Shown in pieces: positions 14,573 through 33,019 of a stretch of DNA of 43,810 bases. The first letter of the stretch is position 1. Each line of letters begins with the position of its first letter. The stretch lies in the IMG/VR virus record IMGVR_UViG_2671180268_000014, one strand, 5' to 3'. A program made the position numbers and the translations under genes. The notes beneath the pieces are model-generated. The model was not told the origin of the DNA. It saw only the letters and a program-made list of their open reading frames with translations, and did no database searches. Origin of the DNA: a virus (Duplodnaviria > Heunggongvirae > Uroviricota > Caudoviricetes).

Positions 14573-14911
14573 CTATTTTTTGGTGCTATAGACTTTTTCG
14601 CCCGAAAAGTCTGGAGCGACCCAAAAGTTAATATTAAACTGAGCATCATCGCTTAGTTCAACACGGTGCCAGTATTGTGGTGGGCTTGTTGCAAAAGCGC
14701 CAGCATTAATGACTACTTTTATCTCCGGTTCAGTAGCATTCTCATCAGTAAAACCATAATATGTTACAGTGCCTTCCATTACGCACAACTGCCCAAAAAC
14801 ACCTGCTGCTGTATTATGATGTGTTAATAACGCTGAAGGTACGTTCTCTTTTGTGAAGAACGGAGTTGAGCGTTTGATTACCCAATCTTTAGGAATTCTC
14901 TTGTGTGTCAT
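14573..14911 (-). CDS. YeaR-like DUF1971 protein
   Basis: Start at internal ATG 14911 with GGAGG SD. Segments RSTPFF and FNINFWVAPDF resemble recalled E. coli YeaR (RSTPFW, FNIDFFVAPE). Confidence 0.55.
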   Translation of the reverse strand: MTHKRIPKDWVIKRSTPFFTKENVPSALLTHHNTAAGVFGQLCVMEGTVTYYGFTDENATEPEIKVVINAGAFATSPPQYWHRVELSDDAQFNINFWVAPDFSGEKVYSTKK

Positions 14912-15724
14912 AACCACCTCCTCCAAAACATGCATTAAAAATGCATCTTTTGGAGGGTTATGTCAAGCTGTTATGAAACACATAATTGATATGTTGATTA
15001 GAGGAGAAGATAGAATAAATATGGTTGTTTTTCGTATAACTATTTGTTTTACTTTTAGTTTATGCATTCTGTGTGTTAGGAATAAGTTATTAAAGTTTAA
15101 TCAAAAAATCTCGATGTAGTCCACATAGATTACTGTTACTGAACCTTATTGTGTGTATTAGTTGTGTTCTGAAATTTCAGCTTAATTATTTATGATGTAT
15201 TTTTTAACGATAAATATTTTCCCAGGATACCTTTACTGTGTATATAAATAAATTATATACGCATAAATAATGTAAAGGCGTCCTTTTAGATATATCTTAT
15301 CAAATGTTAATGACTTGAGTGGGAAATATGATTCCAGCAACTTATCATGTGGCTACTTTATAAAAATAATGCCCATATAAAACAACAAGCGAAAAGGATT
15401 ACGGATAAAAAAGGAGCGAGATGTGCGAACTTGTTATTTTCCATGTTTAACCACCTTAAATAATTGATGATGACGGGATGATTGCATCTGTAATGCTTTT
15501 ATTGAAATGTTATGATAAAAAAGAACTTTTGCATAACATTAAAATGTAATTTATCTAATCGTTTTTAATAATAAGTGTCGTATTTCTATCCTTGTACCAG
15601 CTATTTGATATGTAGTGTTTGTTCATGCTATGTGGGGCTTTACACCATAGCCAGTTTATTTATACTTTATTCGTCAGCCTGAACAACTGGCATCTGCTGC
15701 GCTGCGCCATCGAGAGATTGAGAA

Positions 15725-16324: not shown

Positions 16325-16614
16325 TGGTGAATTTACGTAAAGCGGCTAAAGGCCAGATGTGCCAGATCAGAATCCCTGGCTACTGCAATCACAATCCCGA
16401 AACCTCTGTGCTGGCGCATTACAGGCTGGCGGGGACGTGCGGAACAGCGACAAAACCACATGATATGCAGGCGGCGATAGCCTGTAGCTCATGCCACGAT
16501 CTAATCGACGGGCGGGTAAAAACCAGCGATTACACCAAAGAAGAATTGCGCCTGATGCATGCTGAAGGGGTTTTTCGCACACAAGAAATCTGGAGAAAGA
16601 AAGGTCATTTATGA
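16324..16614 (+). CDS. YbcO-like DUF1364 protein (putative nuclease)
   Basis: RKAAKGQMCQIRIPGYCNHNPETSVLAHYRLAGTCGTATKPHD and CSSCHDLIDGR align with recalled DLP12 YbcO including the conserved cysteines. Confidence 0.6.
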   Translation: MVNLRKAAKGQMCQIRIPGYCNHNPETSVLAHYRLAGTCGTATKPHDMQAAIACSSCHDLIDGRVKTSDYTKEELRLMHAEGVFRTQEIWRKKGHL

Positions 16615-17153
16615 TTTACCCAACGAATACAGGAAAAAGCGGAGAACACCTTCGCCTCACCACGCTGGAAAGTGTCTGGATTCAGGGAAAACTACGTATG
16701 TGGGGGCGCTGGTCGTATATTGGCGGTGGCAGGTCAGGGAATATGTTCAATCAGTTGTTGGCATCCAAAAAACTGACGAAAACAGCCATTAATGAAGCCC
16801 TGCGCAGAATGAAAAAAGCGGGAATAGAGAAAGCTGAGCTGGAAGCGTTTTTGCGAGAGATGATCAACGGCAAGCAAAAGAGCTGGCTGGCGCATTGTAC
16901 TGATGCAGAGGCGTTATGTATTGATCGAGTCATAAGTGAGGTGCTGGCAGAGCATCCAGGATTGATTTGCATTCTCCGGCAACGCTATGAAGGGCGGGGG
17001 ATGACTAAGCGCAAAATGGCTGAATTGCTAAATGATGCACACCCAGAGTGGTGTTTTAGCACATGCGAAAAACGGATTGCTAATTGGTTAGCTGTTGCTG
17101 AGTATGCCCTATATATTCCCATGCGTGAATCATTTGCTGAGAAAATGGCTTGA
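16611..17153 (+). CDS. Late-gene antiterminator Q-like protein
   Basis: Last ORF before a strong terminator and the lysis genes. N-terminal W-rich segment LRMWGRWSYIGGG resembles Q-family proteins. Overlaps the ybcO-like stop. Confidence 0.5.
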   Translation: MIYPTNTGKSGEHLRLTTLESVWIQGKLRMWGRWSYIGGGRSGNMFNQLLASKKLTKTAINEALRRMKKAGIEKAELEAFLREMINGKQKSWLAHCTDAEALCIDRVISEVLAEHPGLICILRQRYEGRGMTKRKMAELLNDAHPEWCFSTCEKRIANWLAVAEYALYIPMRESFAEKMA

Positions 17154-17260: not shown

Positions 17261-17580
17261 ACGTCAGGAAAGCAGGGGAGAATGCTGCTAGTTGGGCAAC
17301 TGGTCTTTCTGCTCCAAATTATAACAGAGACCAGTTATAGTTTCGGTGCTGTGTTTTTTTTACAATATTGTGATAACACATTGCTGGCGGGAGTTTTGAT
17401 ATTTCTTGGCAGGGGCTGATGATGCGTTATCCTGATGTCGTCAACTCATATAAAATGAGATGAGAGATCATTGCAGGGTGGTTTGTAATTCGCTGTTTAG
17501 CGGGACAATATGTTGTCTGATACAAGACACCCGACGCCTCAGATTACTATAATAAAGACGAAGCATCCTTTGTATTGACC

Positions 17581-17606
17581 AACCGCCTGTTTAGGCGGTT
17601 CTTTTT
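17581..17606 (+). terminator. Rho-independent terminator-like hairpin
   Basis: aaccgcc-tgttta-ggcggtt followed by cttttt, in the non-coding stretch between Q and the lipoprotein genes. Confidence 0.45.
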
Positions 17607-18197: not shown

Positions 18198-18626
18198 ATG
18201 GGTTTTCGTAGCGCATCAATTCTTACGTTGATTATTAGTGGGATTATTATCGGGTGCACTGATGCTGTATCGACAAATTATCATGACCGTACATCATATT
18301 ACTCCGATAAAGCAATAGAGACACAGTATGTGAGTTCATCTGAACGTACTTCTGATGTTAGTGAGGATATCCGTCTGTATGCCCATCAAATCAAGAGCGC
18401 CATCGAAAAACAGTTCGGGGATGCGAGTAAGTATTCAGGAAAAGAGTGTACACTGAGAATGCATATGGCCCCGAATGGCCTTCTACTGGAGGTTAAAAGA
18501 GAAAGTGGAGACCTCGATTTATGTCGTGAAGCGATGAATGCGATAAAGAATGCTGATATACCTGCCCCCCCTTCGCCGGAAGTATATAAAGTATTTCAAA
18601 ATGGGGTGCTGGATTTTAAACCCTGA
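18198..18626 (+). CDS. Lipoprotein with TolA C-terminal (domain III)-like domain
   Basis: Signal peptide plus lipobox (IIIGC, Thr at +2). C-terminus YAHQIKSAIEKQFGDASKYSGKECTLRMHMAPNGLLLEVK...PEVYKVFQNGVLDFKP closely parallels recalled TolA domain III. GAGGA SD. Confidence 0.6.
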   Translation: MGFRSASILTLIISGIIIGCTDAVSTNYHDRTSYYSDKAIETQYVSSSERTSDVSEDIRLYAHQIKSAIEKQFGDASKYSGKECTLRMHMAPNGLLLEVKRESGDLDLCREAMNAIKNADIPAPPSPEVYKVFQNGVLDFKP

Positions 18627-18776: not shown

Positions 18777-19172
18777 GTGGGATTAAAGAAAATCGTTATG
18801 TTGACTTTTTGGGTCGGTTTTGTTGCGGGATGCACACCTTTACACCCTTCAGATTGCCACAAAACTACTGCTACAGGTAGTTGCAGTTCAGGACGCTGGG
18901 ATGATCAGGATGAATGGGGGGCGCAAGCGCGGGGAATCAGAGCTGCAATTAATGCCAAACTTGATGAGCCGCATAACTGGAAAGGGAAAAAATGCAGGTT
19001 GCATATGGAATTCTCTCAGGATGGCACGGCGTTAAAAATATCTACCAGTAACGGTGATAAAGCCTATTGCGAAGCGATAAAGTCCGCAGCTCATAAAGCC
19101 AAATTTCCGGCCTTCAACAATCCGGAAGTCTACAGAGATTTTCAGAAATCTGGCTTTGACATGCGAGGTTAG
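18777..19172 (+). CDS. Second lipoprotein with TolA domain III-like C-terminus (paralogue)
   Basis: GTG start with GAGGAG SD; lipobox VAGC, Thr at +2. C-terminus KKCRLHMEFSQDGTALKIS...YCEAIKSAAHKAKFPAFNNPEVYRDFQ is collinear with the upstream paralogue. Confidence 0.55.
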   Translation: MGLKKIVMLTFWVGFVAGCTPLHPSDCHKTTATGSCSSGRWDDQDEWGAQARGIRAAINAKLDEPHNWKGKKCRLHMEFSQDGTALKISTSNGDKAYCEAIKSAAHKAKFPAFNNPEVYRDFQKSGFDMRG

Positions 19173-19423
19173 CTCTTCAATTACTATATCTCATTCATAG
19201 CAAACTGACAGATTTGATGATGTTCTATATACGAAACCTGTGATGTCAAGTCTGAGCTAATACAAATAAACATAATATCAGAGAAATACATTTTATTAGC
19301 TCGCTACGGCGAGCTTTTTATATTGCATCGTCTCCAGCATATATATCAATTAAGGCTCTGATTGATGTGTCTGAAAGCCTACACATAATAACTATGCCAT
19401 CCGTTCCGTGCGGAGGTGAGGCT

Positions 19424-19639
19424 ATGAAATCCATGGACAAAATTTCAACAGGCATTGCCTACGGCACCTCCGCAGGCAGTGCTGGCTACTGGTTTTTACA
19501 GTTGCTCGATAGAGTAACTCCGTCACAGTGGGCTGCAATCGGTGTGCTGGGTAGTCTGGTATTTGGCCTGCTGACGTACCTGACAAACCTTTATTTCAAG
19601 ATTAAAGAAGATAAGCGCAAGGCTGCGAGAGGTGAATAA
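19424..19639 (+). CDS. S: Pinholin, phage 21 S-type (dual-start MKSM)
   Basis: [71 protein letters not shown] matches recalled S21. The ORF-track start at 19367 is probably too long. Confidence 0.8.
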
Positions 19640-20136
19640 TGCCTCCATCATTACGAAAAGTCGTTGCTGCTGCTATTGGTGGCGGAGCAATTGCTATAGC
19701 ATCAGTGTTAATCACTGGCCCAAGTGGTAACGATGGTCTGGAAGGTGTCAGCTACATACCATACAAAGATATTGTTGGTGTATGGACTGTATGTCACGGG
19801 CATACAGGAAAAGACATCATGCTCGGTAAAACGTATACCAAAGCAGAATGCAAAACACTCTTGAATAAAGACCTTGCCACTGTCGCCAGACAAATTAACC
19901 CGTACATCAAAGTCGATATACCGGAAACAACGCGCGGCGCTCTTTACTCATTCGTTTACAACGTGGGTGCTGGCAATTTCAGAACATCGACGCTTCTTCG
20001 CAAAATAAACCAGGGCGATATCAAAGGCGCATGTGATCAGCTACGTCGCTGGACATATGCTGGCGGTAAGCAATGGAAAGGTCTCATGACTCGTCGTGAG
20101 ATTGAGCGTGAAATCTGTTTGTGGGGTCAGCAATGA
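19639..20136 (+). CDS. R: SAR endolysin (phage 21 R-type lysozyme)
   Basis: N-terminal weakly hydrophobic Gly/Ala-rich segment [20 protein letters not shown], then a lysozyme-like domain. Start overlaps the holin stop (TAATG). Confidence 0.85.
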
Positions 20137-20597
20137 ACAGAGTAACCGCGATTATCTCCGCTCTGGTTATCTGCATCATCGTCTGCCTGTCATGGGCTGT
20201 TAATCATTACCGTGATAACGCCATTACCTACAAAGCCCAGCGCGACAAAAATGCCAGAGAACTGAAGCTGGCGAACGCGGCAATTACTGACATGCAGATG
20301 CGTCAGCGTGATGTTGCTGCGCTCGATGCAAAATACACGAAGGAGTTAGCTGATGCGAAAGCTGAAAATGATGCTCTGCGTGATGATGTTGCCGCTGGTC
20401 GTCGTCGGTTGCACATCAAAGCAGTCTGTCAGTCAGTGCGTGAAGCCACCACCGCCTCCGGCGTGGATAATGCAGCCTCCCCCCGACTGGCAGACACCGC
20501 TGAACGGGATTATTTCACCCTCCGGGAACGACTGGTAATGATGCAGGCCCAACTTGAAGGTGCTCAGCAATACATAACCGAGCAGTGTTTAAAGTAA
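20133..20597 (+). CDS. Rz: Rz i-spanin
   Basis: [36 protein letters not shown] matches recalled lambda Rz. ATG overlaps the endolysin TGA (ATGA). Confidence 0.85.
20353..20538 (+). CDS. Rz1: Rz1 o-spanin lipoprotein, nested in Rz in the +1 frame
   Basis: Lipobox LVVVGC, proline-rich mature region ([16 protein letters not shown]); lies wholly inside Rz in another frame. Confidence 0.8.
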
Positions 20598-20734
20598 AAT
20601 CTTAACTACAATATGATTCATTTTGATGATTGTTTCATAAGGAACAGTGAAGTAAGATCTAAGAGGAGTTAAATTTTATACAGTATAATCATAATATTGC
20701 AGCAAGGTGGTTATAATTGAAAGAATATTTAGAT

Positions 20735-22192
20735 ATGAATACATCTCATGTAAGAGTTGTTACTCATATGTGTGGGTTCCTGGTTTGGCTCTATAGTCTT
20801 TCAATGTTGCCACCAATGGTTGTAGCATTGTTTTATAAAGAAAAAAGCCTGTTCGTTTTCTTTATAACTTTCGTTATATTTTTTTGCATTGGTGGCGGAG
20901 CGTGGTATACAACTAAGAAATCTGGCATTCAATTACGTACCCGTGATGGGTTTATTATAATTGTAATGTTTTGGATTTTGTTTTCTGTTATTAGTGCATT
21001 CCCTTTATGGATTGACTCAGAACTTAATTTAACGTTCATTGATGCTCTGTTTGAAGGGGTTTCTGGAATAACAACAACAGGAGCAACTGTAATTGATGAT
21101 GTTAGTTCATTACCTCGGGCATATTTGTACTATCGGTCACAGTTAAATTTTATAGGTGGTTTAGGAGTTATTGTTCTGGCGGTTGCAGTATTGCCATTAT
21201 TGGGTATTGGTGGTGCAAAGCTTTATCAGTCAGAAATGCCGGGGCCATTTAAGGATGACAAACTCACTCCCCGCCTGGCCGATACGTCACGGACACTGTG
21301 GATAACTTATTCTTTATTAGGTATTGCTTGTATTGTCTGTTATAGACTTGCAGGAATGCCTTTGTTTGATGCTATTTGTCACGGGATTTCCACAGTTTCG
21401 CTTGGTGGTTTCTCAACTCATAGCGAGAGTATCGGATATTTTAATAACTATTTGGTTGAGCTGGTGGCTGGTTCTTTTTCCCTGCTATCGGCTTTCAACT
21501 TCACTCTTTGGTATATTGTTATTAGCAGAAAAACGATAAAACCTTTAATCAGAGATATTGAACTTCGTTTCTTTCTGTTAATAGCCTTAGGGGTGATCAT
21601 TGTTACCTCTTTCCAGGTCTGGCATATAGGTATGTATGACTTGCATGGAAGTTTTATTCATTCGTTTTTTCTTGCCAGCTCCATGCTCACTGATAATGGT
21701 TTAGCTACGCAGGATTATGCAAACTGGCCCACGCACACGATAGTGTTTTTGCTGTTGTCAAGTTTCTTTGGGGGATGTATAGGTTCAACCTGTGGTGGAA
21801 TTAAGTCACTTCGATTTCTTATACTTTTCAAACAAAGCAAACACGAGATAAATCAGCTTTCTCATCCCAGAGCGTTGTTGAGTGTAAATGTAGGAGGGAA
21901 GATAGTTACAGATCGTGTAATGAGGTCTGTATGGAGTTTCTTTTTTCTTTATACTCTCTTCACGGTGTTTTTTATACTGGTGTTAAATGGTATGGGATAT
22001 GATTTTCTTACATCATTTGCAACAGTGGCTGCATGTATTAATAATATGGGATTAGGTTTTGGGGCTACTGCATCGTCATTCGGAGTGCTTAATGACATTG
22101 CAAAATATTTAATGTGCATAGCTATGATTCTTGGTCGCCTTGAAATTTATCCTGTTATTATATTGTTTTCAGGTTTTTTTTGGCGCTCCTAA
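20735..22192 (+). CDS. trkG: TrkH/TrkG-family potassium uptake protein
   Basis: 485-aa polytopic membrane protein from MNTSHVRVVTHMCGFLVWLYSL, matching recalled Rac TrkG. AT-rich relative to neighbours. ORF-track start at 20717 adds 6 residues. Confidence 0.85.
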   Translation: MNTSHVRVVTHMCGFLVWLYSLSMLPPMVVALFYKEKSLFVFFITFVIFFCIGGGAWYTTKKSGIQLRTRDGFIIIVMFWILFSVISAFPLWIDSELNLTFIDALFEGVSGITTTGATVIDDVSSLPRAYLYYRSQLNFIGGLGVIVLAVAVLPLLGIGGAKLYQSEMPGPFKDDKLTPRLADTSRTLWITYSLLGIACIVCYRLAGMPLFDAICHGISTVSLGGFSTHSESIGYFNNYLVELVAGSFSLLSAFNFTLWYIVISRKTIKPLIRDIELRFFLLIALGVIIVTSFQVWHIGMYDLHGSFIHSFFLASSMLTDNGLATQDYANWPTHTIVFLLLSSFFGGCIGSTCGGIKSLRFLILFKQSKHEINQLSHPRALLSVNVGGKIVTDRVMRSVWSFFFLYTLFTVFFILVLNGMGYDFLTSFATVAACINNMGLGFGATASSFGVLNDIAKYLMCIAMILGRLEIYPVIILFSGFFWRS

Positions 22193-22329
22193 TATATGGC
22201 TGATTTATAATTGTGAGTTTAATATTATGTTGACTCACTCATTGATCCAATACCTAACTTTACCAGCAACACCTCCGCCCCCAGTAGCACTGGCTGCTGG
22301 GGTGCGTTTTATTCATAAAGCAAGGCTGT

Positions 22330-23118
22330 ATGAGCGAGAAATTAAAGATAGTCTATCGCCCATTACAAGAATTGTCACCGTATGCGCACAACGCCAGGAC
22401 GCACAGTACTGAGCAGGTGGCACAACTGGTAGAAAGTATTAAGCAATTCGGCTGGACTAATCCGGTGCTGATTGACGAAAAGGGCGAAATTATTGCGGGT
22501 CACGGTCGTGTTATGGCGGCTGAAATGCTCAAAATGGATTCTGTTCCGGTCATTGTTCTGTCTGGCCTGACGGATGAGCAGAAAAAGGCGTACCGCCTGG
22601 CAGATAATCGCCTGCCGATGAATGCTGGCTGGGATGAAGATCTGTTGCGGATGGAGCTGTCGGACCTAATCAATGCTGATTTTGATGTCTCCCTGACAGG
22701 CTTCATCCCGGCAGAAATTGATGAACTGTTGACGGATGTTTTGCCCGGTACAGGAAATGAGGAGGAGCCGTATACGACGAAAATTGATACGCCTGTTTAT
22801 GAGCCGTCAGGCGGTAAACCGGATATCAGTGAACTGTACGACGATACGAAAACTCAGGAGCTGATCAGCCGGATACGTTCGGCGTCCCTTGATCCTGATA
22901 TTGAGAAATTCCTCCTGTGTGCAGCAGAACGTCACACGGTGTTTAATTTCAGCAGAATTGCGGACTATTACGCTCATGCCCCCGCTGAAATTCAGTGCCT
23001 TTTCGAGGAGTCGGCGCTGGTGATCATTGATTATCAGCAGGCTATTGAAAATGGATTTGTCCGAATGACGCAGCGCATGGTGGAGATCATGCATGGCGGG
23101 GAGGAGGAATATGCGTGA
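22330..23118 (+). CDS. ParB-like nuclease domain protein (YnaK-like, full length)
   Basis: N-terminal ParB/Srx-like region (LSPYAHNARTHS...GHGRVMAA...YRLADNRL). Immediately upstream of the packaging genes. Confidence 0.6.
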   Translation: MSEKLKIVYRPLQELSPYAHNARTHSTEQVAQLVESIKQFGWTNPVLIDEKGEIIAGHGRVMAAEMLKMDSVPVIVLSGLTDEQKKAYRLADNRLPMNAGWDEDLLRMELSDLINADFDVSLTGFIPAEIDELLTDVLPGTGNEEEPYTTKIDTPVYEPSGGKPDISELYDDTKTQELISRIRSASLDPDIEKFLLCAAERHTVFNFSRIADYYAHAPAEIQCLFEESALVIIDYQQAIENGFVRMTQRMVEIMHGGEEEYA

Positions 23119-24043
23119 TGATTTTTGCGCCTTTATTCTGACTCACGGGCGACCGGACAAAGTTCTGACTTACCGGACGTTGCGTCGTGCTGGCTATACC
23201 GGGAAAATTTTTATCGTTGTTGATGATGAAGATAAGACACGGCATCAGTACATGGCTGAATTTGGTGAACAGGTGCTGGTATTTTCCAAAGCCGATATTG
23301 CTAGTCGTTTTGACGAAGCCGATAATTTTAGTGACCGCCGCTCAATTTTTTACGCCCGTAATGCCTGTTTCGACCAGGCAAAACTGGTCGGGTGTAAATA
23401 CTTCATTCAGCTCGATGATGATTATCACGAGTTCCAGTTTCGGGTGGATCGCAACTATGACCAGGCCTATTTCCCGATAAGGAAACTGGATGAGATCCTT
23501 TCTGAAATGCTTGCGTACTACGAATCAATACCTGCTCTTTCCATCGCTATGTCGCAGGGCGGGGATTTTCTTGGTGACAATGGCGGCCATGCTTCGTGGG
23601 TGAAACGCAAGGCAATGAACAGCTTTATCTGTTCGGTTGATCGACCGTTCTCATTCATGGGGCGCATTAACGAGGATGTGAATACGTACACGAATCTCGG
23701 TCGCTGTGGTGAATTGTTTATGACGATCGGTGCTGTCCAGTTAGGGCAGAAACAGACGCAGAAAAACAGCGGCGGAATGACCGAGCTGTATCTGGATTCC
23801 GGAACCTACGTTAAAAGTTTTTACTCCGTCATGTATGCGCCGTCGTGCGTAAAAATCTCACTTATGGGTGCCAGTCATAAACGCATTCACCATCAGGTCA
23901 CCTGGAACAACGCTGCAGTAAAAATCCTTCACGAAAAATACAGGAAGAAGACACCCTGCATATCAATGGGGGTGACAAATGATTCCGTATTCGAAAGTCG
24001 AGTCTCTGGCAGCGTGCCGGATGACTGCACAACAAATCGCTGA
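23093..24043 (+). CDS. Hypothetical protein (YdaY-like), possible GT-A-like nucleotide-sugar transferase fold
   Basis: Segments AFILTHGRPDK...IFIVVDDED and a later QLDDDY resemble a GT-A Rossmann core with a DxD motif. Weak, motif-level only. Probable start at MRDDF (23111). Confidence 0.35.
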   Translation: MAGRRNMRDDFCAFILTHGRPDKVLTYRTLRRAGYTGKIFIVVDDEDKTRHQYMAEFGEQVLVFSKADIASRFDEADNFSDRRSIFYARNACFDQAKLVGCKYFIQLDDDYHEFQFRVDRNYDQAYFPIRKLDEILSEMLAYYESIPALSIAMSQGGDFLGDNGGHASWVKRKAMNSFICSVDRPFSFMGRINEDVNTYTNLGRCGELFMTIGAVQLGQKQTQKNSGGMTELYLDSGTYVKSFYSVMYAPSCVKISLMGASHKRIHHQVTWNNAAVKILHEKYRKKTPCISMGVTNDSVFESRVSGSVPDDCTTNR

Positions 24044-24230
24044 CGTTCTGGATGTTGATCTGAACCGACTGAAAGAAAATCGGGAAGCAATGACAGATTT
24101 TTATGCGGCCATCCGTAAGGGCAGAGCGAAAGGTGAAGCCGAGTTACGAGCGGCATTGTTTAAGCTTGCCAGAAAAGGGGATGCCTTTGCTCTGCGCGAA
24201 CTACTCAGGGTGGATAAAAATCAGGACTAA
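23979..24230 (+). CDS. Small HTH-like protein upstream of terS
   Basis: 83-aa ORF overlapping the 3' end of the previous gene; TAQQIADVLDVDLNRLKENREAM is HTH-like. Start uncertain (possibly the Met at 24021). Confidence 0.3.
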   Translation: MIPYSKVESLAACRMTAQQIADVLDVDLNRLKENREAMTDFYAAIRKGRAKGEAELRAALFKLARKGDAFALRELLRVDKNQD

Positions 24231-24233
24231 CTG

Positions 24234-25328
24234 ATGAGCAGACCGGACTGGGGGGCGTTGCAGCAGGAGTATATTGCTGAATACACCCGCTCCGGTATAT
24301 CTCCGGTGGCATGGTGTGAAGCAAGGGGACTGAATTACGCAACAGCCCGTCGTTACATCAAAAAAACTCCGAAAAATGCGCAGACAGAAATGTGCAAAAC
24401 TGCGCAAAAAAGTGCGCAGAAAAAATCTGCGCAGACTGCACAAAAGCGGAACGAAAAATCTCAGGAAAAAAAGCCAGTATTCGATGCGGGCCTGAATGAG
24501 GGCGACGCGGAGGAATTTTCGTTCTGTCCCGATGAATTCGGCATTTCTGACCAGCAGGCTAAGTTTGCGATGCTTGTTGCTCAGGGTAAAAAGCCGACAG
24601 AGGCGTACCGACTAGCCGGTTATGAGGGGCAAGGTGCGACAGCTAACAGCAACGCCAGTCGTATGCTTAGAAATGCCAGGGTTTTTCGCGCTATCAGCTA
24701 CTTCCGCAATCAGTACCAGAAACGCTATACCGCAGACCTGGATTTACTAGTGAGTCAGTTGATGGCTATTGTCCTGGCCGACCCCAATCAGCTTGCACAA
24801 TTTCGCCGTGTTAACTGCCGTTATTGCTGGGGCGAGAATCATCTCTACCAGTGGCGCGATATAGCAGAATTCGACAAGGCAGCGGCGCAGGCTTCCAGAG
24901 ATGGCAAACCCGAACCGGAATATGGAGGCCTCGGCTTTGTTGATAACGCCATACCCAATCCGGACTGCCCGAAGTGCTGCGGTGAGGGAACGGGACAGCT
25001 TTATATGGCTGATACCACTCTGCTTGATGGGGATGCGCGGCAATTATATGCAGGGGCAAAATTCGGAAAATTCGGCGTTGAGATCCTGCTGGAGGATAAG
25101 GCTGCCGCCCGGCGTGAATTGTTGCGTTTGTTTTCTGCTGGCGGGGCTTTATGTGCAGATAAGCGGCTACGGGAACTGGAAATTGAACGGCGCAGAATGG
25201 AAAACCAGAAGCTGCGCAAAGAGATCGAAACGGTGGAAGATAATGAACATCCCCAGCCTGTGGCGATCAATATTAATGTGGTTGATGCCAGAGTAAGGAG
25301 TGATGAAGATGATCTCTCCGACGCTTAA
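24234..25328 (+). CDS. Terminase small subunit (putative), with zinc-ribbon and AQK-rich linker
   Basis: Immediately upstream of and overlapping terL. Contains CRYCWGENH...CPKCCGEG (two CxxC) and a low-complexity AQK-rich N-terminal stretch that coincides with a DNA repeat array. Confidence 0.55.
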   Translation: MSRPDWGALQQEYIAEYTRSGISPVAWCEARGLNYATARRYIKKTPKNAQTEMCKTAQKSAQKKSAQTAQKRNEKSQEKKPVFDAGLNEGDAEEFSFCPDEFGISDQQAKFAMLVAQGKKPTEAYRLAGYEGQGATANSNASRMLRNARVFRAISYFRNQYQKRYTADLDLLVSQLMAIVLADPNQLAQFRRVNCRYCWGENHLYQWRDIAEFDKAAAQASRDGKPEPEYGGLGFVDNAIPNPDCPKCCGEGTGQLYMADTTLLDGDARQLYAGAKFGKFGVEILLEDKAAARRELLRLFSAGGALCADKRLRELEIERRRMENQKLRKEIETVEDNEHPQPVAININVVDARVRSDEDDLSDA

Positions 25329-26610
25329 TGTGCCTCAGGCGCGATTTCTTTCAATGCCCCATAAATTTAAAGCCTATATTGCTGGTTTTGGCTCGGGCAA
25401 AACATGGGTTGGGTGTGGCGGCATATGCAAGGGGATTTGGGAGCATCCAGGTATAAATCAGGGATATTTTGCGCCAACGTATCCCCAAATTCGCGATATT
25501 TTTTACCCTACAGTGGAAGAAGTTGCTGCTGACTGGGGATTGAACGTAAAAATTAATGAGGGAAATAAAGAGGTTCACTTTTATTACGGACGCCAGTATC
25601 GGGGAACCACTATCTGCAGATCGATGGAGAAGCCACAAACGATCGTCGGTTTCAAAATTGGTAATGCGTTGGTGGATGAACTGGACATTTTGCCGAAGGA
25701 AAAAGCCAGAACGGCGTGGCGCAAGATAATTGCACGTATGCGTTATAAGATTGATGGACTTCGCAACGGTATTGACGTTACAACCACGCCGGAAGGATTC
25801 AAATTTGTCTACGAGCAGTTTGTTAAAGCCGTGCGTGAAAAAACAGAGCTGGCCTCACTGTATGGTCTGGTGCAGGCATCTACTTTCGATAATGAAAAGA
25901 ACCTGCCAGCAGATTACATTCCTTCGCTTCTTGAATCATACCCTCCAGAGCTGATTAAAGCCTATCTTCGAGGACAGTTTACTAACCTGACAAGTGGTAC
26001 TGTTTACCATCAGTTTGACCGGAAACTGAATAATTGCGAAGAAGTGGAGCAGCCAGGGGAGCCGATTTATATTGGGATGGATTTTAACGTTGGAAAGATG
26101 GCGGGAATCGTCCATGTGCTGCGTTTGGGGCTTCCATGTGCGGTAACTGAAATCATCAATGCCTACGATACGCCGGATATGATCCGCATCATTAAAGAAC
26201 GCTTCTGGCTGTATGATGGGAATGATTACCGGAAAGTGAGGGAAATTTATATTTATCCAGATGCTTCCGGGGATTCCAGAAAATCAAGTAACGCAAGTAC
26301 GACGGATATAGCCCAGCTTAAGCAGGCTGGTTTTAACGTTGTGGTGAACAGCTCGAACCCGCCAGTAAAAGATCGCGTTAACTCAATGAATGCAATGTTC
26401 TGCAATGCCAATGGTGAGCGTCGCTATAAAGTTAATGTGAAGCGTTGCCCGTTATATGCCGAATCTCTGGAGCAACAGGTCTGGGATGAGAAGGGGGAGC
26501 CTGATAAAAAATCTGGCAATGATCACCCGAATGATGCCGGAGGTTATTTCATCGTTAAGCAATTCCCTATTGTCAAACCGACCGGAAGAGTCACATCACT
26601 TCGGATTTAA
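25300..26610 (+). CDS. Terminase large subunit
   Basis: Walker A-like GFGSGKTW near the N-terminus; 436 aa; followed directly by the portal gene. Start may be a few codons downstream. Confidence 0.8.
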   Translation: MMKMISPTLNVPQARFLSMPHKFKAYIAGFGSGKTWVGCGGICKGIWEHPGINQGYFAPTYPQIRDIFYPTVEEVAADWGLNVKINEGNKEVHFYYGRQYRGTTICRSMEKPQTIVGFKIGNALVDELDILPKEKARTAWRKIIARMRYKIDGLRNGIDVTTTPEGFKFVYEQFVKAVREKTELASLYGLVQASTFDNEKNLPADYIPSLLESYPPELIKAYLRGQFTNLTSGTVYHQFDRKLNNCEEVEQPGEPIYIGMDFNVGKMAGIVHVLRLGLPCAVTEIINAYDTPDMIRIIKERFWLYDGNDYRKVREIYIYPDASGDSRKSSNASTTDIAQLKQAGFNVVVNSSNPPVKDRVNSMNAMFCNANGERRYKVNVKRCPLYAESLEQQVWDEKGEPDKKSGNDHPNDAGGYFIVKQFPIVKPTGRVTSLRI

Positions 26611-26612
26611 TT

Positions 26613-28019
26613 ATGGCTGATATATCAACACCCAACCTCGACTATAACGATATGCTGGAGGCGTGGGATATTAACGACGCACTGATGGGCGGTACGCTTG
26701 AAATGCGCAGGCAGGGGGAAAATTATCTCCCAAAATGGCCTAACGAAGATGAAGACGCTTATAAAAAACGCCTGTCTGTGGCTACGCTACTTCCTGTGTA
26801 TGAAGAAAGCATCAAGCAAAATATTGGGCGCATATTTGCAGAGCCGACAGTATTGAGTGAGGAAACGCCGGCAAAAATCAGGGAATATGCAGAAAATATC
26901 GACATGGAGGGGAGCCGACTGGATGTGTGGGCGCAGCAATTTTTCAGCCTCGCATTTCAGTATGGTGTGGCACATGCGCTGGTGGACTATCCACGAACGG
27001 ATATGAAAGAGATTCGGACAAAAGCCGATGAAAACGCGACCGGTGGTCGTCCGTACGTTACGATGCTGAATCCACGCCAGGTTATTGGATGGAAATCGAA
27101 AGTTGAAAAAGGGAAAGTTGTTCTCACTGATTTGCGTATAAAAGAGGTCATCATTATTGATGGTGATGATTTCGGGCAGAAGAAGGTGGAGCAGATCCGC
27201 CATATTATGCCCCGTCGAGTTGAAATTTATCGACGTAGCGAAGGCACTAATGGCGAATCTGTCTGGACGCTTCATGAGTCATGGAATACCAGCCGTGATG
27301 ATATTCCTCTGGTAACACTGTACACGAAGAAAACAGGATTTATGCGTGGTACACCGCCATTGCTTAATCTTGGCTTGCTGAATATCAAGCACTGGCAAAG
27401 CCAGAGCGAGCAGGACAATATTCTTCATGTTGCCCGCGTTCCATTGCTGGTGGCCTACGGGCTGGACAGGAATGAAGAACTGACGGTTGGTGCATCCACC
27501 GCTACGATTTTTGAGGACAGAACAAAAAATGGCCTCGAATATGTTGAACATAGTGGCGCAGCGATAGAATCTGGCGAAACATCACTTGAGAAGCTGGAAA
27601 ATCAGATGCGTCATGCCGGCGCTAAACTTCTGCGTGCTGAAAATACATCCACCAAATCTGTTGATCAGACTAATGAAGAGCGAATGCAGGAAAACTCGCC
27701 GCTTTATACAATGGCGAACTCCCTCGAAGATGCCCTCGATAATATTCTCCAGATAATGGCGGAATGGATCGGAGAGAGTTGCGGTGGCAATGTGGATGTG
27801 CGCACTGAACTGGATGTATCTGCCCAGGTGTTTGACTCATCCTCCGCGCTGGCTGTTCAGTCATTGCGTCAGGGCGGTGATATACGTCAGATTGATGCGG
27901 TTCGGGTGTTGCAGGCGTTGAAATTTATCGATCAGGATTCCCGTCCAGAGGAAGTGATCGATGAATTAAAAAATCAGAGTGTAATGCTGATGGAAATCAA
28001 TGATGCAAACCGTGAATGA
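26613..28019 (+). CDS. Portal protein
   Basis: 468-aa ORF starting 2 nt after the terL stop; size and position typical of a portal. Confidence 0.65.
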   Translation: MADISTPNLDYNDMLEAWDINDALMGGTLEMRRQGENYLPKWPNEDEDAYKKRLSVATLLPVYEESIKQNIGRIFAEPTVLSEETPAKIREYAENIDMEGSRLDVWAQQFFSLAFQYGVAHALVDYPRTDMKEIRTKADENATGGRPYVTMLNPRQVIGWKSKVEKGKVVLTDLRIKEVIIIDGDDFGQKKVEQIRHIMPRRVEIYRRSEGTNGESVWTLHESWNTSRDDIPLVTLYTKKTGFMRGTPPLLNLGLLNIKHWQSQSEQDNILHVARVPLLVAYGLDRNEELTVGASTATIFEDRTKNGLEYVEHSGAAIESGETSLEKLENQMRHAGAKLLRAENTSTKSVDQTNEERMQENSPLYTMANSLEDALDNILQIMAEWIGESCGGNVDVRTELDVSAQVFDSSSALAVQSLRQGGDIRQIDAVRVLQALKFIDQDSRPEEVIDELKNQSVMLMEINDANRE

Positions 28020-29115
28020 ACGGCTGCGTGATGAATCAATTGCTCATGCAGTCTGGATATCCCGCTATAGCACTGGCGTGGCTGCCAGAATGGTGAAAAT
28101 ACTGAATGACAGCGATGCGGAACTTACTGCTCGCCTGCTGATAGCACTGGACAGCCTCGATCCAGGTAGTTTTACCGTTAAGCGCCTGGAGTCACTTCTG
28201 GCGAGCGTCAGAGAGGTTAACCGCACTGCTATTAACAGCATGTTTACCAGTCTCTCCGGAGAGCTGAACGAGCTGGCAATTTATGAGGCTGGTTATCAGT
28301 TAAGTCTGTTTGATTCTATGCTACCTGATTTTGTTGCTGATGTTCACCCTCTGGTTGGTATCTCTCCTGATGCACTTTATGCCGCTGCAATGGCGCGACC
28401 ATTCCAGGGACGACTGCTCAGTGAGTGGGCCTCAGATCTTGAGGCGGATCGGCTCAGACGCATAACAAATACAGTGCGTCAGGGTTTTTTGCTGGGGGAT
28501 ACCAATGAGCAGATCGCAAGAAAAATTCGGGGACATGTCAGTAAGGGATTTCAGGATGGTGCATTGCAGATGAGCCGGGCTAATGCGGCCAGCATTGCAA
28601 AAACAGCGGTTGGACATCTTGCTGCTACTGCCCGTGAGAGTTTTGCCAGCGCGAATAATGATTTGATTAAGGGTAAGCAATGGTTATCAACGCTTGATAA
28701 TCGTACTACGCCACAATGTCGAATCAGGGATCGCCTCAAATATACGCTGAATAATAAACCTGTAGGTCACAGCGTGCCTTATTTGCAGGGGCCGGGAAAA
28801 ATTCATTTCTGCTGCCGCTCAACGGAAACGTTCATTCTGAAATCAGCGAAGGAACTGGGTATTGATGTTCGCGATATTTCCCCGGCTGAGCGGGCCAGCA
28901 TGGATGGCGTGGTGGCCGGAGATACAACCTACAGGGAATGGTTTTTGCGTCAGCCTTACACCAGACAAAAACAGATTGTGGGGGAAAGCCGAGCAAAGCT
29001 GATTCGGGATGGTGGTATGTCGCCAGATGAATTTTACACCGATAAAGGCGAATGGCTGACGCTGAAGCAGCTCCGTGAGCGTGATGCACAGGTATTCAGA
29101 AAAGCAGGGATTTAA
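28000..29115 (+). CDS. Head morphogenesis / minor head protein (Mu F-like, SPP1 gp7-like)
   Basis: 371-aa ORF overlapping the portal 3' end and followed by a strong terminator; assignment is by position and size. Confidence 0.45.
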   Translation: MMQTVNERLRDESIAHAVWISRYSTGVAARMVKILNDSDAELTARLLIALDSLDPGSFTVKRLESLLASVREVNRTAINSMFTSLSGELNELAIYEAGYQLSLFDSMLPDFVADVHPLVGISPDALYAAAMARPFQGRLLSEWASDLEADRLRRITNTVRQGFLLGDTNEQIARKIRGHVSKGFQDGALQMSRANAASIAKTAVGHLAATARESFASANNDLIKGKQWLSTLDNRTTPQCRIRDRLKYTLNNKPVGHSVPYLQGPGKIHFCCRSTETFILKSAKELGIDVRDISPAERASMDGVVAGDTTYREWFLRQPYTRQKQIVGESRAKLIRDGGMSPDEFYTDKGEWLTLKQLRERDAQVFRKAGI

Positions 29116-29134
29116 ATAAATCATTTATTACAAC

Positions 29135-29159
29135 AGGCTACCTTCGGGTGGCCTTTTTT
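29135..29159 (+). terminator. Rho-independent terminator with UUCG tetraloop
   Basis: aggctacc-ttcg-ggtggcct followed by ttttt; 8-bp stem with one G-U pair. Confidence 0.6.
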
Positions 29160-29219
29160 ATTGCTGCGATCCGGATGGTGAGCAGCGTAACTGTCGGAAG
29201 ACTTAAACCAGGTACTAAT

Positions 29220-29984
29220 ATGAAACTGAAAACGGTCGAGATTAACGGAAAACAATACGCAGAAATTGATACTGCTGGCCTGCCAGTTTATGTGCACGAC
29301 GATGGTAAAGAAATTGGCTTCGATGCACCGCTGGCGACAAAAAAAATTACAGAGCTTAATGGCGAGGCAAAAAATCATCGCCTGGCTAAAGAAGCTGCAG
29401 AGGAAAAACTGGCTAAGTTTGCCGCTATCGAAGACCCGAAGAAGGCGATCGAGGCACTGGAAATGCTGTCAAAAATCGACCAGAAAAAGCTGCTCGATGC
29501 GGGACAGGTTGACCAGGTTAAGGCAGAAATTACGAAAAATTTTCAGCAGCAATTAGATGAAGAAAAGCAACGCTCTCAGATGCTGGAGAAGCAGCTTTAC
29601 GATTCTATGATTGGCGGTAGTTTTGCGGGTTCAAAATATATTGCCGATAAAATTGCGATTCCGGCAGATTTATTACAAGCCCGCTTCGGGCAGGCATTCA
29701 AAGTGGAAGAAGGGAGGATCGTTGCTTATGACGCTTCCGGCAACAAAATTTATTCCCGCGCGAAGCCTGGCGAACTGGCGCAGTTTGATGAGGCGCTGGA
29801 GTTCCTTGTCGAAAATTACCCTCAGAAAGACTACATCCTGAAAGCCAGTGGCAACAATGGCGGCGGCTCCCGTCCGACACAGCATGATATTGGTCAGAAA
29901 ACGATGAAACGCTCTGCTTTTGATGCACTGGATGTTGCAGGTAAGCAAAACGCATTGAAAGACGGTATCACAATCGTTGATTAA
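29220..29984 (+). CDS. Scaffolding-like protein
   Basis: Helical, charged protein with coiled-coil-like regions, directly upstream of the major capsid gene. Start at MKLKTVEING; the ORF-track start at 29148 overlaps the terminator. Confidence 0.45.
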   Translation: MKLKTVEINGKQYAEIDTAGLPVYVHDDGKEIGFDAPLATKKITELNGEAKNHRLAKEAAEEKLAKFAAIEDPKKAIEALEMLSKIDQKKLLDAGQVDQVKAEITKNFQQQLDEEKQRSQMLEKQLYDSMIGGSFAGSKYIADKIAIPADLLQARFGQAFKVEEGRIVAYDASGNKIYSRAKPGELAQFDEALEFLVENYPQKDYILKASGNNGGGSRPTQHDIGQKTMKRSAFDALDVAGKQNALKDGITIVD

Positions 29985-30082
29985 CACATTTGTCAGCTTC
30001 CGGATGGGAGCTGGTGTCAGGGCTGGATAGCTCATTACTCCATCTATTCACAATTACGCAAATTTTTAAGGAATATTTAATT

Positions 30083-31222
30083 ATGGCTGGAAATACCCTG
30101 ACCGGGTTGATCCCGACTATTTATACCGCCCTGGATGTTGTATCCCGTGAGCAGGTAGGTTTTATCCCTGCGGTAGCAAAAAACGCAAAAGCTGACGCCG
30201 CAGCAAAAGATCAGACGGTAACCGCGCCAGTTGCGCCTGAGGCGAAAACCGAAGATATCGTACCGGGGCCGTCAGCTCCGAATACCGGTGATCAAAATAT
30301 TGGCACTGTTGATGTAAAAATTACTAAATCCAAAATGGCACCGGTTAAATGGAATGGTGAAGAACAACTGGCTCTTGGCCCTTCAGGGACTTACAACACC
30401 ATTCTGGCTGATCAGTTCAAGCAGGCTTTTCGCGCCCTTGCAAACGAGGTTGAGGCTGATCTTGGTGCGTTGTATTTCGGTGCTTCCCGCGCCGTGGGAA
30501 CCGCAGGGACAACGCCGTTTGGTGTTAAAGATGATCTTTCTGATGCTGCTCTGGCTCGTCAGGTTCTGGAGGATAACGGCGCACCGACAACCGATCTGCA
30601 GATGGTGCTTGGCTCCACTGCCATTGCTAATTTGCGCGGAAAACAGTCTGTATTGTTTAAAGTGAATGAATCCGGCACTGAACAGCTACTGCGTGAGGGC
30701 GTGTTGGGGCGTCTGGAGGGATTCAATATTCACAGTTCGGCAGGTGTGAAACGAGCGCCAAAGGTTGCTGCAACTGGTTATCTCGTGAATGGAGAGAAAA
30801 AAGAAGGCGATGTTCTTATTTCCATTGATACTGGTTCGGGGAGTATTTCTGCAGGTCAGATTGTTACGTTCGCTGGTGATCCGAATCAGTATGTTGTGGC
30901 AGCAGCGACCAGCAATCTGATTACTCTTGCAGCGCCCGGACTGCGTCAGGATCTGGCCGATGATACTGCCATCACAGTTGTTGGGGCCTTTACTGCAAAT
31001 ATGGCGTTTGATCGCAACGCGTTTCTGCTGGCATCCCGTACTCCGGCAATGCCGGAAGGTGGCGATAATGCTGATGATGTAATGAATGTTACGGACCCGA
31101 TTTCAGGGATTACGTTCCAGATTGCACTGTATCGTCAGTATCGCCAGGTGCGCTATGAAGTTGGACTGGCATGGGGTGTTTCATCAGTGAAGCCGGCACA
31201 TGGTTGTCTGATTCTTGGTTAA
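30083..31222 (+). CDS. Major capsid protein
   Basis: About 380 aa, AAGGA SD, followed by a strong terminator hairpin. Start at MAGNTLTGL. Confidence 0.6.
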   Translation: MAGNTLTGLIPTIYTALDVVSREQVGFIPAVAKNAKADAAAKDQTVTAPVAPEAKTEDIVPGPSAPNTGDQNIGTVDVKITKSKMAPVKWNGEEQLALGPSGTYNTILADQFKQAFRALANEVEADLGALYFGASRAVGTAGTTPFGVKDDLSDAALARQVLEDNGAPTTDLQMVLGSTAIANLRGKQSVLFKVNESGTEQLLREGVLGRLEGFNIHSSAGVKRAPKVAATGYLVNGEKKEGDVLISIDTGSGSISAGQIVTFAGDPNQYVVAAATSNLITLAAPGLRQDLADDTAITVVGAFTANMAFDRNAFLLASRTPAMPEGGDNADDVMNVTDPISGITFQIALYRQYRQVRYEVGLAWGVSSVKPAHGCLILG

Positions 31223-31232
31223 ACATTCAAAC

Positions 31233-31253
31233 GGGGCTTCGGCCCCATTTTTA
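31233..31253 (+). terminator. Rho-independent terminator with UUCG tetraloop after the capsid gene
   Basis: ggggc-ttcg-gcccc followed by atttttaat. Confidence 0.55.
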
Positions 31254-31264
31254 ATGGGGGGCAT

Positions 31265-31441
31265 ATGGCCGGATTAACTAAAGAGCAAAGAGCACAGCGT
31301 GAAGCCGCACAAAAAACGCAAATTGAGTTAGTGGTTATGGTGACCGATTATCAGATGTTTCCCGGCGCACCAACTATCGCTAATGTTCATCCTGATGAAG
31401 TTGACAACTGGAAGGCTATGGGCTGGAAAACTCAGGAGTAA
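31265..31441 (+). CDS. Hypothetical small protein (58 aa)
   Basis: Hand-translated: MAGLTKEQRAQREAAQKTQIELVVMVTDYQMFPGAPTIANVHPDEVDNWKAMGWKTQE. Fills the gap between capsid and head-tail genes. Confidence 0.3.
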   Translation: MAGLTKEQRAQREAAQKTQIELVVMVTDYQMFPGAPTIANVHPDEVDNWKAMGWKTQE

Positions 31442-31444
31442 CAC

Positions 31445-31840
31445 ATGATCACTTACGTGACCTGTGATGACGTTGATAATGCGTTTGGGAACGCCTGGAC
31501 GAGTGAGAACGCTAAAAATAAAGCTGTTTTAATGGCTAATGCCTGGCTTAATGGCTTCAACCTGAAAATTAACCCATCCCGTATTCCGGAAGAGGTAAAA
31601 CTTGCGGGAGCATATGCAGCCAGAATTGCCTCATTCGGTAAGTTGTTTCAGCAGAAAAATGATTCTGGCGTTGTTATCAGTAAAGCCGTGTCGGCTGACG
31701 GGGTCAGTGTATCGAAATCATTTTCTGAGTTGCCAGCAAACAGCACTGCATTGCTTGAACCCGATTTACAGCTTGCGATAGCACTGCTGAAACCGTACGG
31801 ACTTAGTCGCTCACAAGTCAGGGTTGTGAGGGGGGGATAA
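31445..31840 (+). CDS. Head-tail connector / head completion protein (putative)
   Basis: 131-aa ORF with AGGAG SD, first of four tightly packed small genes between capsid and tail tube. Position-based. Confidence 0.35.
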   Translation: MITYVTCDDVDNAFGNAWTSENAKNKAVLMANAWLNGFNLKINPSRIPEEVKLAGAYAARIASFGKLFQQKNDSGVVISKAVSADGVSVSKSFSELPANSTALLEPDLQLAIALLKPYGLSRSQVRVVRGG

Positions 31841-32223
31841 TGGGGCTTCGTGAAGAGATTCAGTCAGAGGTTGCCGCTGCTTTTGATGAGGATTTAGCGG
31901 ACGCCGTGAGTGATTTTTCTGGTTCTTACGTTACGCACCGGCACTGGGATCCTGTGACGGAAACTGGCGGCGAATCAACCGCAATCTATACCGGGCGAGG
32001 CGTGTTGACACGTTATAAGCTGGGCAGAATTGATGGGATTAATATTTTGCATGGTGACCTTAAATTAACCGCTCTGGTATGCGAGGTTACGGATAAACCA
32101 GCTGTCGACCATATTATTGAGATTTATGATCCTGTATCAAGGCAGTTACAACGATACGAGGTAATTACAGCAAGTGTAGATCCTTCCGCATCAGTTTACT
32201 CTATCCAGTTAAGGAGAGCGTAA
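31840..32223 (+). CDS. Head-tail joining protein (putative)
   Basis: 127-aa ORF with overlapping start/stop. Position-based. Confidence 0.3.
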   Translation: MGLREEIQSEVAAAFDEDLADAVSDFSGSYVTHRHWDPVTETGGESTAIYTGRGVLTRYKLGRIDGINILHGDLKLTALVCEVTDKPAVDHIIEIYDPVSRQLQRYEVITASVDPSASVYSIQLRRA

Positions 32224-32993: not shown

Positions 32994-33019
32994 CGCAATT
33001 AATGACATAGGAGGCTCCT

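Follow-up and report, generated by a model that had tools for sequence, protein, structure and literature searches.

What does a ParB-like gene paired with a glycosyltransferase gene do at the head of a phage packaging operon? The question is raised by positions 22,330 to 24,043 of a 43,810-nucleotide stretch of caudoviral DNA (IMG/VR record IMGVR_UViG_2671180268_000014, hereafter the window), which is a Rac-like lambdoid prophage of Escherichia coli and is 100% identical to E. coli strain EC2 over the range of the pair. A preliminary description made from the letters had called the first gene a ParB-like nuclease-domain protein and the second a possible GT-A-like protein, and had suggested that the two may act in DNA modification or anti-restriction. 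Compared across bacterial and archaeal viruses, the two genes make up a conserved, almost obligate and, by their overlap, translationally coupled module. By annotation they are ordinary, widespread prophage genes; their pairing points to a testable question about ParB-assisted glycosylation.

The second gene encodes a TAGT-family glycosyltransferase

Both open reading frames (ORFs) lie on the plus strand as had been described (22330–23118, 262 aa; 23093–24043, 316 aa in the longest reading), and their profile matches place them far beyond chance. The 316-aa frame is real but is better read from a later start: the true start is almost certainly the ATG at 23111, giving 310 aa, because a strong Shine-Dalgarno sequence (GGAGGAGG) precedes it, homologues all begin M-R-D-D-F, and RefSeq uses the same codon. 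The stop of the ParB-like gene and the start of the transferase gene overlap by 8 nt (ATGCGTGA), which indicates translational coupling.

The transferase matches Pfam PF20691, TAGT (TET-associated glycosyltransferase), at 118.8 bits (cut-off 27.5; 4.1e-34), with residues 14–228 of the 316-aa reading aligned to positions 4–205 of the 205-position profile, and phrog_842 at 8e-104. It is a clear sequence member of a family that includes the T2/T6 beta-glucosyl-HMC-alpha-glucosyltransferase, phage 5mYOX-associated GT-A enzymes, the kinetoplastid base-J glucosyltransferase and GREB1; its RefSeq name is 'GREB1-related protein'. TAGT was the only domain seen in it with Pfam, NCBIfam and PADLOC. The GT-A fold had been suggested from two motifs, IFIVVDDED and QLDDDY, both of which are present in the translation, and structure prediction bore the suggestion out. 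In an AlphaFold2 model built with 32 homologues the GT-A core has a pLDDT above 90, and the top Foldseek matches in the PDB are the GT-A enzymes K4CP (chondroitin polymerase), SunS/ThuS, SpsA and glycogenin. Against the BFVD viral models the best matches are TAGT-domain proteins (TM 0.7–0.8), with the T4-like 'beta-glucosyl-HMC-alpha-glucosyltransferase' of Klebsiella phage PKO111 ranking below them. A PDB search by sequence gave no match.

Residues R14, D102-D103-D104-Y105 (codons 23414–23425) and N187-E188-D189 are invariant in the 32 homologues, and R14, DDD and ED match 'R...DDD...ED', which bioRxiv 10.1101/2023.12.21.572611 gives as the active-site signature of the base-J glucosyltransferase of trypanosomes and of phage DNA GT-A enzymes. 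Further invariant motifs are D38..D41, D68-E-A-D-N-F, Y81-A-R-N, Q149-G-G-D, N187-E-D-V (codons 23669–23680), T216-Q..G-G-M-T and R258-x-H-H. In the C-terminal part K235, P244 and H260-H261 are kept even in the TAGT of the T4-like Aeromonas phage 65, which also has the R...DDD...ED motifs. The C-terminal tail of 25 or so residues (from about 23963), which overlaps the next ORF, is specific to E. coli. Alignment and model together identify the product as a GT-A glycosyltransferase of the TAGT family with intact catalytic motifs.

The first gene encodes a ParB/Srx-fold protein

The ParB-like protein matches Pfam ParB_N at 29.3 bits (cut-off 26.3; 8.7e-7) and phrog_620 over its full length (1.7e-90). 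Its AlphaFold2 model has a nucleotide-binding domain at residues 7–95 (1–95 in the overall layout), a helix-helix segment at 103–134 (97–135 in the layout), a disordered stretch at 136–169 (pLDDT below 50) and a helical C-terminal domain. The closest Foldseek matches are the CTP-binding domains of Noc, ParB (ParB-CDP), PadC and KorB, followed by sulfiredoxin (Srx) and a serine kinase. Conserved residues are N21-x-R23, S36, G57-H-G-R60 and N93. Compared with partition ParB proteins (the CTPase clamps Spo0J, Noc and KorB), counterparts of the phosphate-binding Arg and the box III Asn are kept, but GHGR stands in place of GERR, of which only the last Arg (R60) remains. The model shows no recognisable helix-turn-helix domain, RefSeq annotates no ParA in the prophage, and the gene lies in a late lytic operon; a partition (ParABS) protein is ruled out on these grounds, parS sites not having been looked for. 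We found no nuclease evidence for the protein either, and the 'nuclease' label is no more than a historical, inherited one.

The N-terminal 144 residues form a module with a wider distribution. They match phrog_498, 'DNA methyltransferase', at 6e-51, and 422 phage records, for which 'DNA methyltransferase/methylase' was the commonest annotation among the 40 matches listed. In PADLOC the only hit for the protein was an N-terminal match to MTase_II (1.5e-38), the transferase having no match; a reading of the pair as a defence system was rejected on this result. The module is followed by a linker motif, Y148-T-x-K-I-x-x-P-x-Y-E-P-x-G-x-x-P164, whose columns are invariant or nearly so although the segment is predicted to be disordered. 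Its conservation and the model suggest that the transferase may dock on this motif; in a rival reading weighed below, the motif would instead be a Tyr/Thr acceptor. The C-terminal domain comprises 1,187 clusters at 50% identity and holds the C-terminal position throughout. No fusion of ParB to TAGT was found: none of the best 150 C-terminal-domain representatives is long enough, and none of the 240 homologues listed carries both Pfam domains. Fold prediction and homology thus place the first gene product in the ParB/Srx fold, and its N-terminal half is a module that in other phage proteins is joined to a DNA methyltransferase.

The genes form a conserved pair

Transferase homologues with 40–47% identity occur in halovirus HHTV-2, Lactobacillus phages phi jlb1, c5, phiLdb and LL-Ku, Nocardia phage NTR1 and 191-kb Vibrio phages, and a Porphyromonas phage has one at 27%. 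The same type of ParB gene lies just upstream in HHTV-2 (gp21/gp22), phi jlb1 (024/025), c5 (ORF1/ORF2), Porphyromonas phage005a and three metagenomic phages. The HHTV-2 proteins are 38% and 41% identical to the E. coli pair, and in c5 the pair begins 90 nt after cos. The ParB proteins align end to end, linker motif and C-terminal domain included, at 38–42% identity with the haloarchaeal and Lactobacillus proteins.

An earlier scan of viral contigs had returned near-identical E. coli prophages only, and the haloarchaeal protein was used as lead sequence for diversity. We chose 80 diverse IMG/VR viral loci by two transferase peptide motifs alone. The same ParB type was found upstream of the transferase in 79 of them and directly adjacent in 78, nearly always with a stop/start overlap. 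The locus lacking it has just 74 nt of upstream sequence, and in another (L106) one gene stands between the two. A reverse sample of 80 loci, chosen by motifs of the ParB C-terminal domain, contained the transferase in every case (69 adjacent, 11 with one inserted gene). Apart from the transferase, the ParB-like partner is the sole gene that recurs at nearly all loci; terminase, portal and upstream genes vary.

The 11 inserted genes (L173, L176, L182, L186, L193, L195, L203, L206, L212, L221 and L226; for example L206:2942–3892) encode proteins of 317–330 aa in which a His_Phos_1 domain (3e-37) is fused to a cytidylyltransferase-like domain (TagD/RfaE-II-like, 9e-13). From its domains this phosphatase-cytidylyltransferase looks like a means of supplying or tailoring an activated donor for an active transferase.

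The pair keeps its place while its surroundings change. Downstream lie the genes for the small terminase subunit (TerS), the large subunit (TerL) and the portal; the terminases belong to five or more unrelated families, namely Terminase_6 (in the window), Terminase_3, the T7-like RNaseH type, TerL_ATPase and GpA. Upstream is the end of the replication/nin region, with NinG, RusA, DnaB, SSB, ERF, RecT and Q. This neighbourhood of a ParB-domain gene, an enzyme and terminase genes is seen in the window, HHTV-2, phi jlb1, c5, Porphyromonas phage005a, loci L002–L004 and most of loci L089–L168. Hosts of the viruses concerned belong to the Archaea, Firmicutes, Actinobacteria, Bacteroidota and Proteobacteria. 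Within E. coli, 889 of 5,426 complete genomes (about one in six) carry 80% or more of the pair, and thousands of identical-length copies are on record.

A few loci depart from the common layout. The gene between ParB and TAGT in L106 (936–1901) encodes a 322-aa radical SAM protein that is weakly MoaA- or viperin-like, and a second radical SAM family occurs among the upstream neighbours of related modules. An exception to the pairing is Vibrio phage pv27 (L008; 191 kb), in which a TAGT 44% identical to ours, with an N-terminal extension of about 30 aa, lies at 5887–6888 among primase, exonuclease and helicase genes; the annotation of the 12.9 kb covered there includes no ParB gene.

Proposed function of the pair

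We propose that the pair is expressed late and glycosylates DNA with the assistance of ParB, on an acceptor other than the usual one, a reading that we judge to be about evenly poised between right and wrong. The ParB-like protein would serve as adaptor or activator: its nucleotide-binding domain and helix-helix segment would engage DNA duplexes, with a possible dependence on NTP, and its C-terminal domain or the YEP linker motif would hold the transferase. Just before packaging or in the course of it, the latter would move a sugar from a host NDP-sugar to phage DNA that has been replicated, and the sugar might then hide the incoming DNA from restriction or other DNA-sensing systems of the next host.

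We favour DNA as the substrate because the N-terminal module of the ParB-like protein also serves DNA methyltransferases, whose substrate is DNA, and because the characterised relatives in TAGT act on DNA (PMC13216743, PMC13390438, bioRxiv 10.1101/2023.12.21.572611). With ParB176, a phage ParB protein of the same domain layout, the partner thymine dioxygenase is activated, and specifically so on double-stranded DNA (O'Toole et al., PNAS 2026, PMC13229309), and PMC4738411 gives a 'ParB-terminase large subunit locus' as predicted to modify phage DNA during packaging. The earlier remark that ParB-like proteins beside packaging genes are often partners of DNA-modification enzymes fits the methyltransferase fusions, this dioxygenase and this locus. 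A narrower form of the proposal, that ParB-coupled TAGT enzymes and their adaptors glycosylate DNA that contains no hydroxymethyl-pyrimidine, on a canonical base or the backbone and perhaps sparsely or site-specifically, is a tentative one that we would sooner bet against. If true, it would mean a chemically new class of DNA modification made by two genes only.

Several observations weigh against DNA glycosylation of this kind. Characterised TAGT relatives transfer sugar onto the hydroxyl of 5-hydroxymethyl-cytosine or -uracil, or onto its first glucose (PMC13216743, PMC13390438, bioRxiv 10.1101/2023.12.21.572611). No TET/JBP enzyme, thymidylate-synthase-like hydroxymethylase, (C5-)methyltransferase or first glucosyltransferase came to light in the window, either in Pfam scans of the module, the terminase genes, trkG and ten poorly characterised ORFs or in the annotation that RefSeq gives for the identical prophage. 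No acceptor-making enzyme is annotated in the complete genome of phage c5 (31.8 kb, 50 ORFs), and no acceptor-making family recurs within 7 kb of 80 related modules among the top 25 families listed, a survey that a TET/JBP gene present at a single locus could escape. For that survey 1,031 genes from the 80 loci were clustered, and 20 recurrent families and 123 upstream family representatives were scanned with Pfam; the functions returned were replication, recombination, Q and terminase, with rare radical SAM and MT-A70 matches. Canonical DNA bases are not known to be glycosylated directly, and for HHTV-2, Rac-like phages and Lactobacillus phage c5 we found no paper that reports on DNA modification. 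Mutations in the NTP site of ParB176 had little effect, which leaves the adaptor mechanism unsettled (PMC13229309), and the TAGT-family member GREB1 glycosylates (O-GlcNAcylates) a protein (PMC7968844).

With no source of 5-hydroxymethyl-pyrimidine beside the module, the textbook TAGT reaction is therefore not to be assumed. Judged by gene content the module seems self-sufficient, and we infer that its acceptor differs from that of characterised TAGTs.

Alternative explanations

The strongest rival, which we nonetheless consider unlikely, is that protein rather than DNA is glycosylated. The simplest target would be the Tyr/Thr residues of YTxKIxxPxYEP in the ParB partner, and the glycoprotein would then serve packaging or counter-defence. 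The missing-acceptor problem disappears on this explanation, and it has in its favour that the ParB-like partner alone recurs with the transferase at nearly all loci, that a strongly conserved Tyr/Thr-rich motif lies in a predicted disordered segment, that the self-glucosylating glycogenin is among the structural neighbours of the transferase, and that GREB1 sets a precedent for O-GlcNAc on protein. A docking peptide, however, accounts for the conserved linear motif equally well, and a glycosylated ParB has no apparent function. The ParB N-terminal module is elsewhere fused to DNA methyltransferases, and the viral TAGT members whose substrate has been described act on DNA (PMC13216743, PMC13390438, bioRxiv 10.1101/2023.12.21.572611). 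Should protein be the acceptor after all, the default 'DNA glucosyltransferase' annotation of the PHROG family would be overturned; should the pair modify DNA, as we prefer, the activator role of ParB would extend from dioxygenases to glycosyltransferases, and an unfamiliar acceptor chemistry would be implied.

The enzyme could also perform the standard TAGT reaction on 5-hydroxymethyl-cytosine or -uracil (or its first sugar), the base being made by an unrecognised, divergent dioxygenase or hydroxymethylase of phage or host. The enzyme shares all catalytic and family-wide invariant residues with the T4-like TAGT of Aeromonas phage 65 and with the family profile, thousands of 5mYOX-like sequences carry no Pfam TET/JBP annotation (PMC13229309), and the window holds many ORFs to which no function is assigned. 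Against this, the searches described above yielded no hydroxylase in the window, in the c5 annotation or recurrently near the 80 modules, and ParB is the sole partner at nearly all loci; a shared host-made base is implausible because hosts range from haloarchaea to Bacteroidota. We regard this explanation as improbable. It is harder still to credit that the genes are unrelated neighbours, the first a packaging accessory (for pac/cos recognition or as a nuclease) or partition protein, the second a lysogenic-conversion moron that alters a surface glycan. Their position beside terminase genes (in phage c5, immediately behind cos) would suit such a view, as would the historical 'ParB-like nuclease' and 'partition protein' annotations and the existence of prophage-borne GT-A enzymes such as TarP that modify surface polymers (bioRxiv 10.1101/2023.12.21.572611). 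Pairing is near-obligate in both directions, however, with overlap of stop and start, and it is kept beside the at least five unrelated terminase types; the transferase carries a TAGT domain only, and no flippase or surface-glycan gene is annotated nearby. The pair also lies behind a terminator-like hairpin in a late operon and not under a lysogenic promoter, and the partition features noted above (ParA, helix-turn-helix) are missing from the annotation and the model. On the reciprocal pairing, the gene overlap and the late-operon position we rejected the partition-ParB, nuclease and lysogenic-conversion readings, and we rate chance neighbourhood as very improbable.

Relation to known systems

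The components of the pair and the general type of locus are already known and annotated. Solitary TAGT genes of undefined function were reported in 288 of 753 glycosyltransferase-encoding phage genomes (PMC13216743), and about 65% of mined glycosyltransferase contigs have no neighbouring base-modifying enzyme (bioRxiv 10.1101/2023.12.21.572611). The present results indicate that one large and highly conserved 'solitary' TAGT subfamily is not solitary: it forms an almost obligate coupled pair with a dedicated ParB-fold protein, and no hydroxylase was found with it. This strict coupling is unexplained by any characterised system, and the arrangement may already be catalogued in Iyer et al. 2013 (NAR 41:7635).

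Within TAGT the paired enzymes form a tight subfamily, with about 40% identity between the E. coli and haloarchaeal virus proteins and one type of ParB as partner. The known acceptor pathway of the family (dCMP/dUMP hydroxymethylase, TET/JBP, C5-methyltransferase, alpha-/beta-glucosyltransferase) was not found beside the transferase of the window. A tblastn search with it gave no match in T2 or T6 at E≤1e-3. The PHROG/RefSeq name 'beta-glucosyl-HMC-alpha-glucosyltransferase' is a misnomer here because the known acceptors are absent, the lambdoid prophage having neither an hmC pathway nor a first glucosyltransferase, and because T2 and T6 gave no match.

The closest parallel to the ParB-like protein is ParB176, the partner of 5mYOX176 (PMC13229309). 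In both proteins a nucleotide-binding domain is followed by a short helical segment, a disordered linker and a C-terminal domain, and neither has a recognisable DNA-binding domain; ParB176 lies beside a post-replicative DNA-modifying enzyme near terminase genes, and the ParB-TAGT pair is likewise placed. The mutated residues N14, R16, S29 and R56 of ParB176 appear to correspond to N21, R23, S36 and R60 here, at nearly the same spacing, a comparison made from published residue positions. The partner of ParB176 is a dioxygenase, whereas here it is a glycosyltransferase whose dependence on ParB is predicted by analogy.

ParB-DNA-methyltransferase fusions share the homologous N-terminal 144 residues (42–52% identity to examples) and the same genomic slot, between replication/lysis genes and terminase genes. 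The pair differs from them in that the enzyme is a separate polypeptide, that the ParB protein has a dedicated domain, about 100 aa long, at its C-terminus, and that the predicted reaction is glycosyl transfer, not methylation. One related locus contains both arrangements: in L114 a ParB-N6_N4 DNA methyltransferase fusion (4921–6096), to which the N-terminal segment is 42% identical over 113 aa, lies directly upstream of a ParB-TAGT pair, giving two ParB-headed units in tandem before the terminase genes. The gene arrangement also matches that of the ParB-terminase (Tls) DNA-modification locus of Iyer and Aravind, as cited in PMC4738411; that the enzyme of the window modifies DNA is assumed in this comparison.

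The module in K-12 and its annotation

E. coli K-12 provides a natural deletion of the module. K-12 (MC1061) matches the window from 20153 to 22583 and resumes at 34141; relative to the window its Rac prophage has a clean 11,557-bp deletion (22584–34140) that joins ParB codon 85 to a tail-region gene and removes the transferase, terminase (packaging) and head genes outright. The preliminary description had taken the K-12 genes ynaK and ydaY for fragments of this region. That is correct for ynaK, which consists of ParB codons 1–85, but ydaY is the tail gene from 34141 onward, inside the 153-aa ORF 34031–34492, and not a transferase remnant. With a tractable host, an inducible phage and the K-12 deletion at hand, the Rac-like prophage of E. 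coli lends itself well to tests.

In EC2 the intact 262-aa ParB gene is called a truncated ynaK pseudogene ('missing C-terminus') by RefSeq/PGAP (L001 20001–20258, equal to window 22330–22587), though the ORF is open. This call is probably an artefact of naming the gene after the K-12 fragment.

Genomic context and late expression

The features of the region are collected in Table 1. In plus-strand order the window has a Q-like antiterminator, pR'/tR'-like signals, two TolA-C ORFs, lysis genes, trkG, the ParB-like and transferase genes, a small ORF, TerS, TerL and the portal. The pair had been placed directly upstream of the terminase genes; the position holds, except that the small ORF intervenes. 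This ORF matches the middle of the small-terminase family phrog_309 and overlaps the E. coli-specific tail of the transferase. It resembles part of a small terminase by that match and is treated here as context, the evidence not showing that it belongs to the module.

Table 1. Features of the ParB-TAGT locus and its surroundings (window coordinates).
Feature	Position	Strand	Remarks
Q-like antiterminator	16611–17153	+	in the late region
pR'-like promoter and tR'-like terminator	17524–17600	+	upstream of the module
TolA C-terminal domain ORF 1	18198–18626	+	2.4e-23; between late promoter region and lysis cassette
TolA C-terminal domain ORF 2	18777–19172	+	1.3e-14; between late promoter region and lysis cassette
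Lysis genes	19367–20597	+	
trkG moron	20717–22192	+	TrkH family, 1e-144; between lysis genes and module
Terminator-like hairpin	22279–22302	+	strong; 10-bp stem, 7 G-C pairs, T-rich tail; between trkG and ParB gene
ParB/Srx-fold gene (putative adaptor)	22330–23118	+	262 aa
ParB N-terminal module	22330–22761	+	144 aa; nucleotide-binding domain and helix-helix segment; homologous to N-terminus of ParB-DNA-methyltransferase fusions
Linker motif	22771–22821	+	invariant or near-invariant columns; predicted disordered segment
ParB C-terminal domain	22825–23094	+	RHTVFxF ... SALVIIDY ... AIExGF; ends proteins of 250–310 aa
Shine-Dalgarno sequence	23099–23106	+	4 nt before ATG 23111
TAGT-family GT-A glycosyltransferase gene	23111–24043	+	310 aa
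Small ORF	24021–24230	+	69 aa (83 aa from 23979); phrog_309, 8.3e-23; RefSeq CDS
TerS	24234–25328	+	Terminase_2, 3.8e-8
TerL	25300–26610	+	Terminase_6N, 3.7e-33; Terminase_6C, 3.4e-10
Portal	from 26613	+	

No convincing promoter was found ahead of the ParB-like gene. The GC content of the module (0.46–0.51) is the same as that of the structural genes, while that of trkG is low (0.35–0.41). From this layout we infer that the module is expressed late and in a Q-dependent manner, together with the packaging genes, and is silent in lysogens. The hairpin would keep it off in the lysogen and Q-modified late transcription would pass through.

Some features of the window lie outside this argument. TerS is unusually long (364 aa), and its N-terminus weakly resembles IS66 TnpA (NCBIfam, below cut-off, E 4e-4). 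In the early region, the adjacent ORFs 11844–12935 and 12951–13952 (363 and 333 aa) have sub-threshold Pfam matches to HEPN/RES N-terminal domain 1 and GNAT acetyltransferase and no match in PADLOC; together they may form a toxin or defence pair of uncharacterised kind, and the second is annotated as frameshifted in strain EC2. A DUF1971 protein (2.6e-26) is encoded on the minus strand of the nin-like region at 14573–14935.

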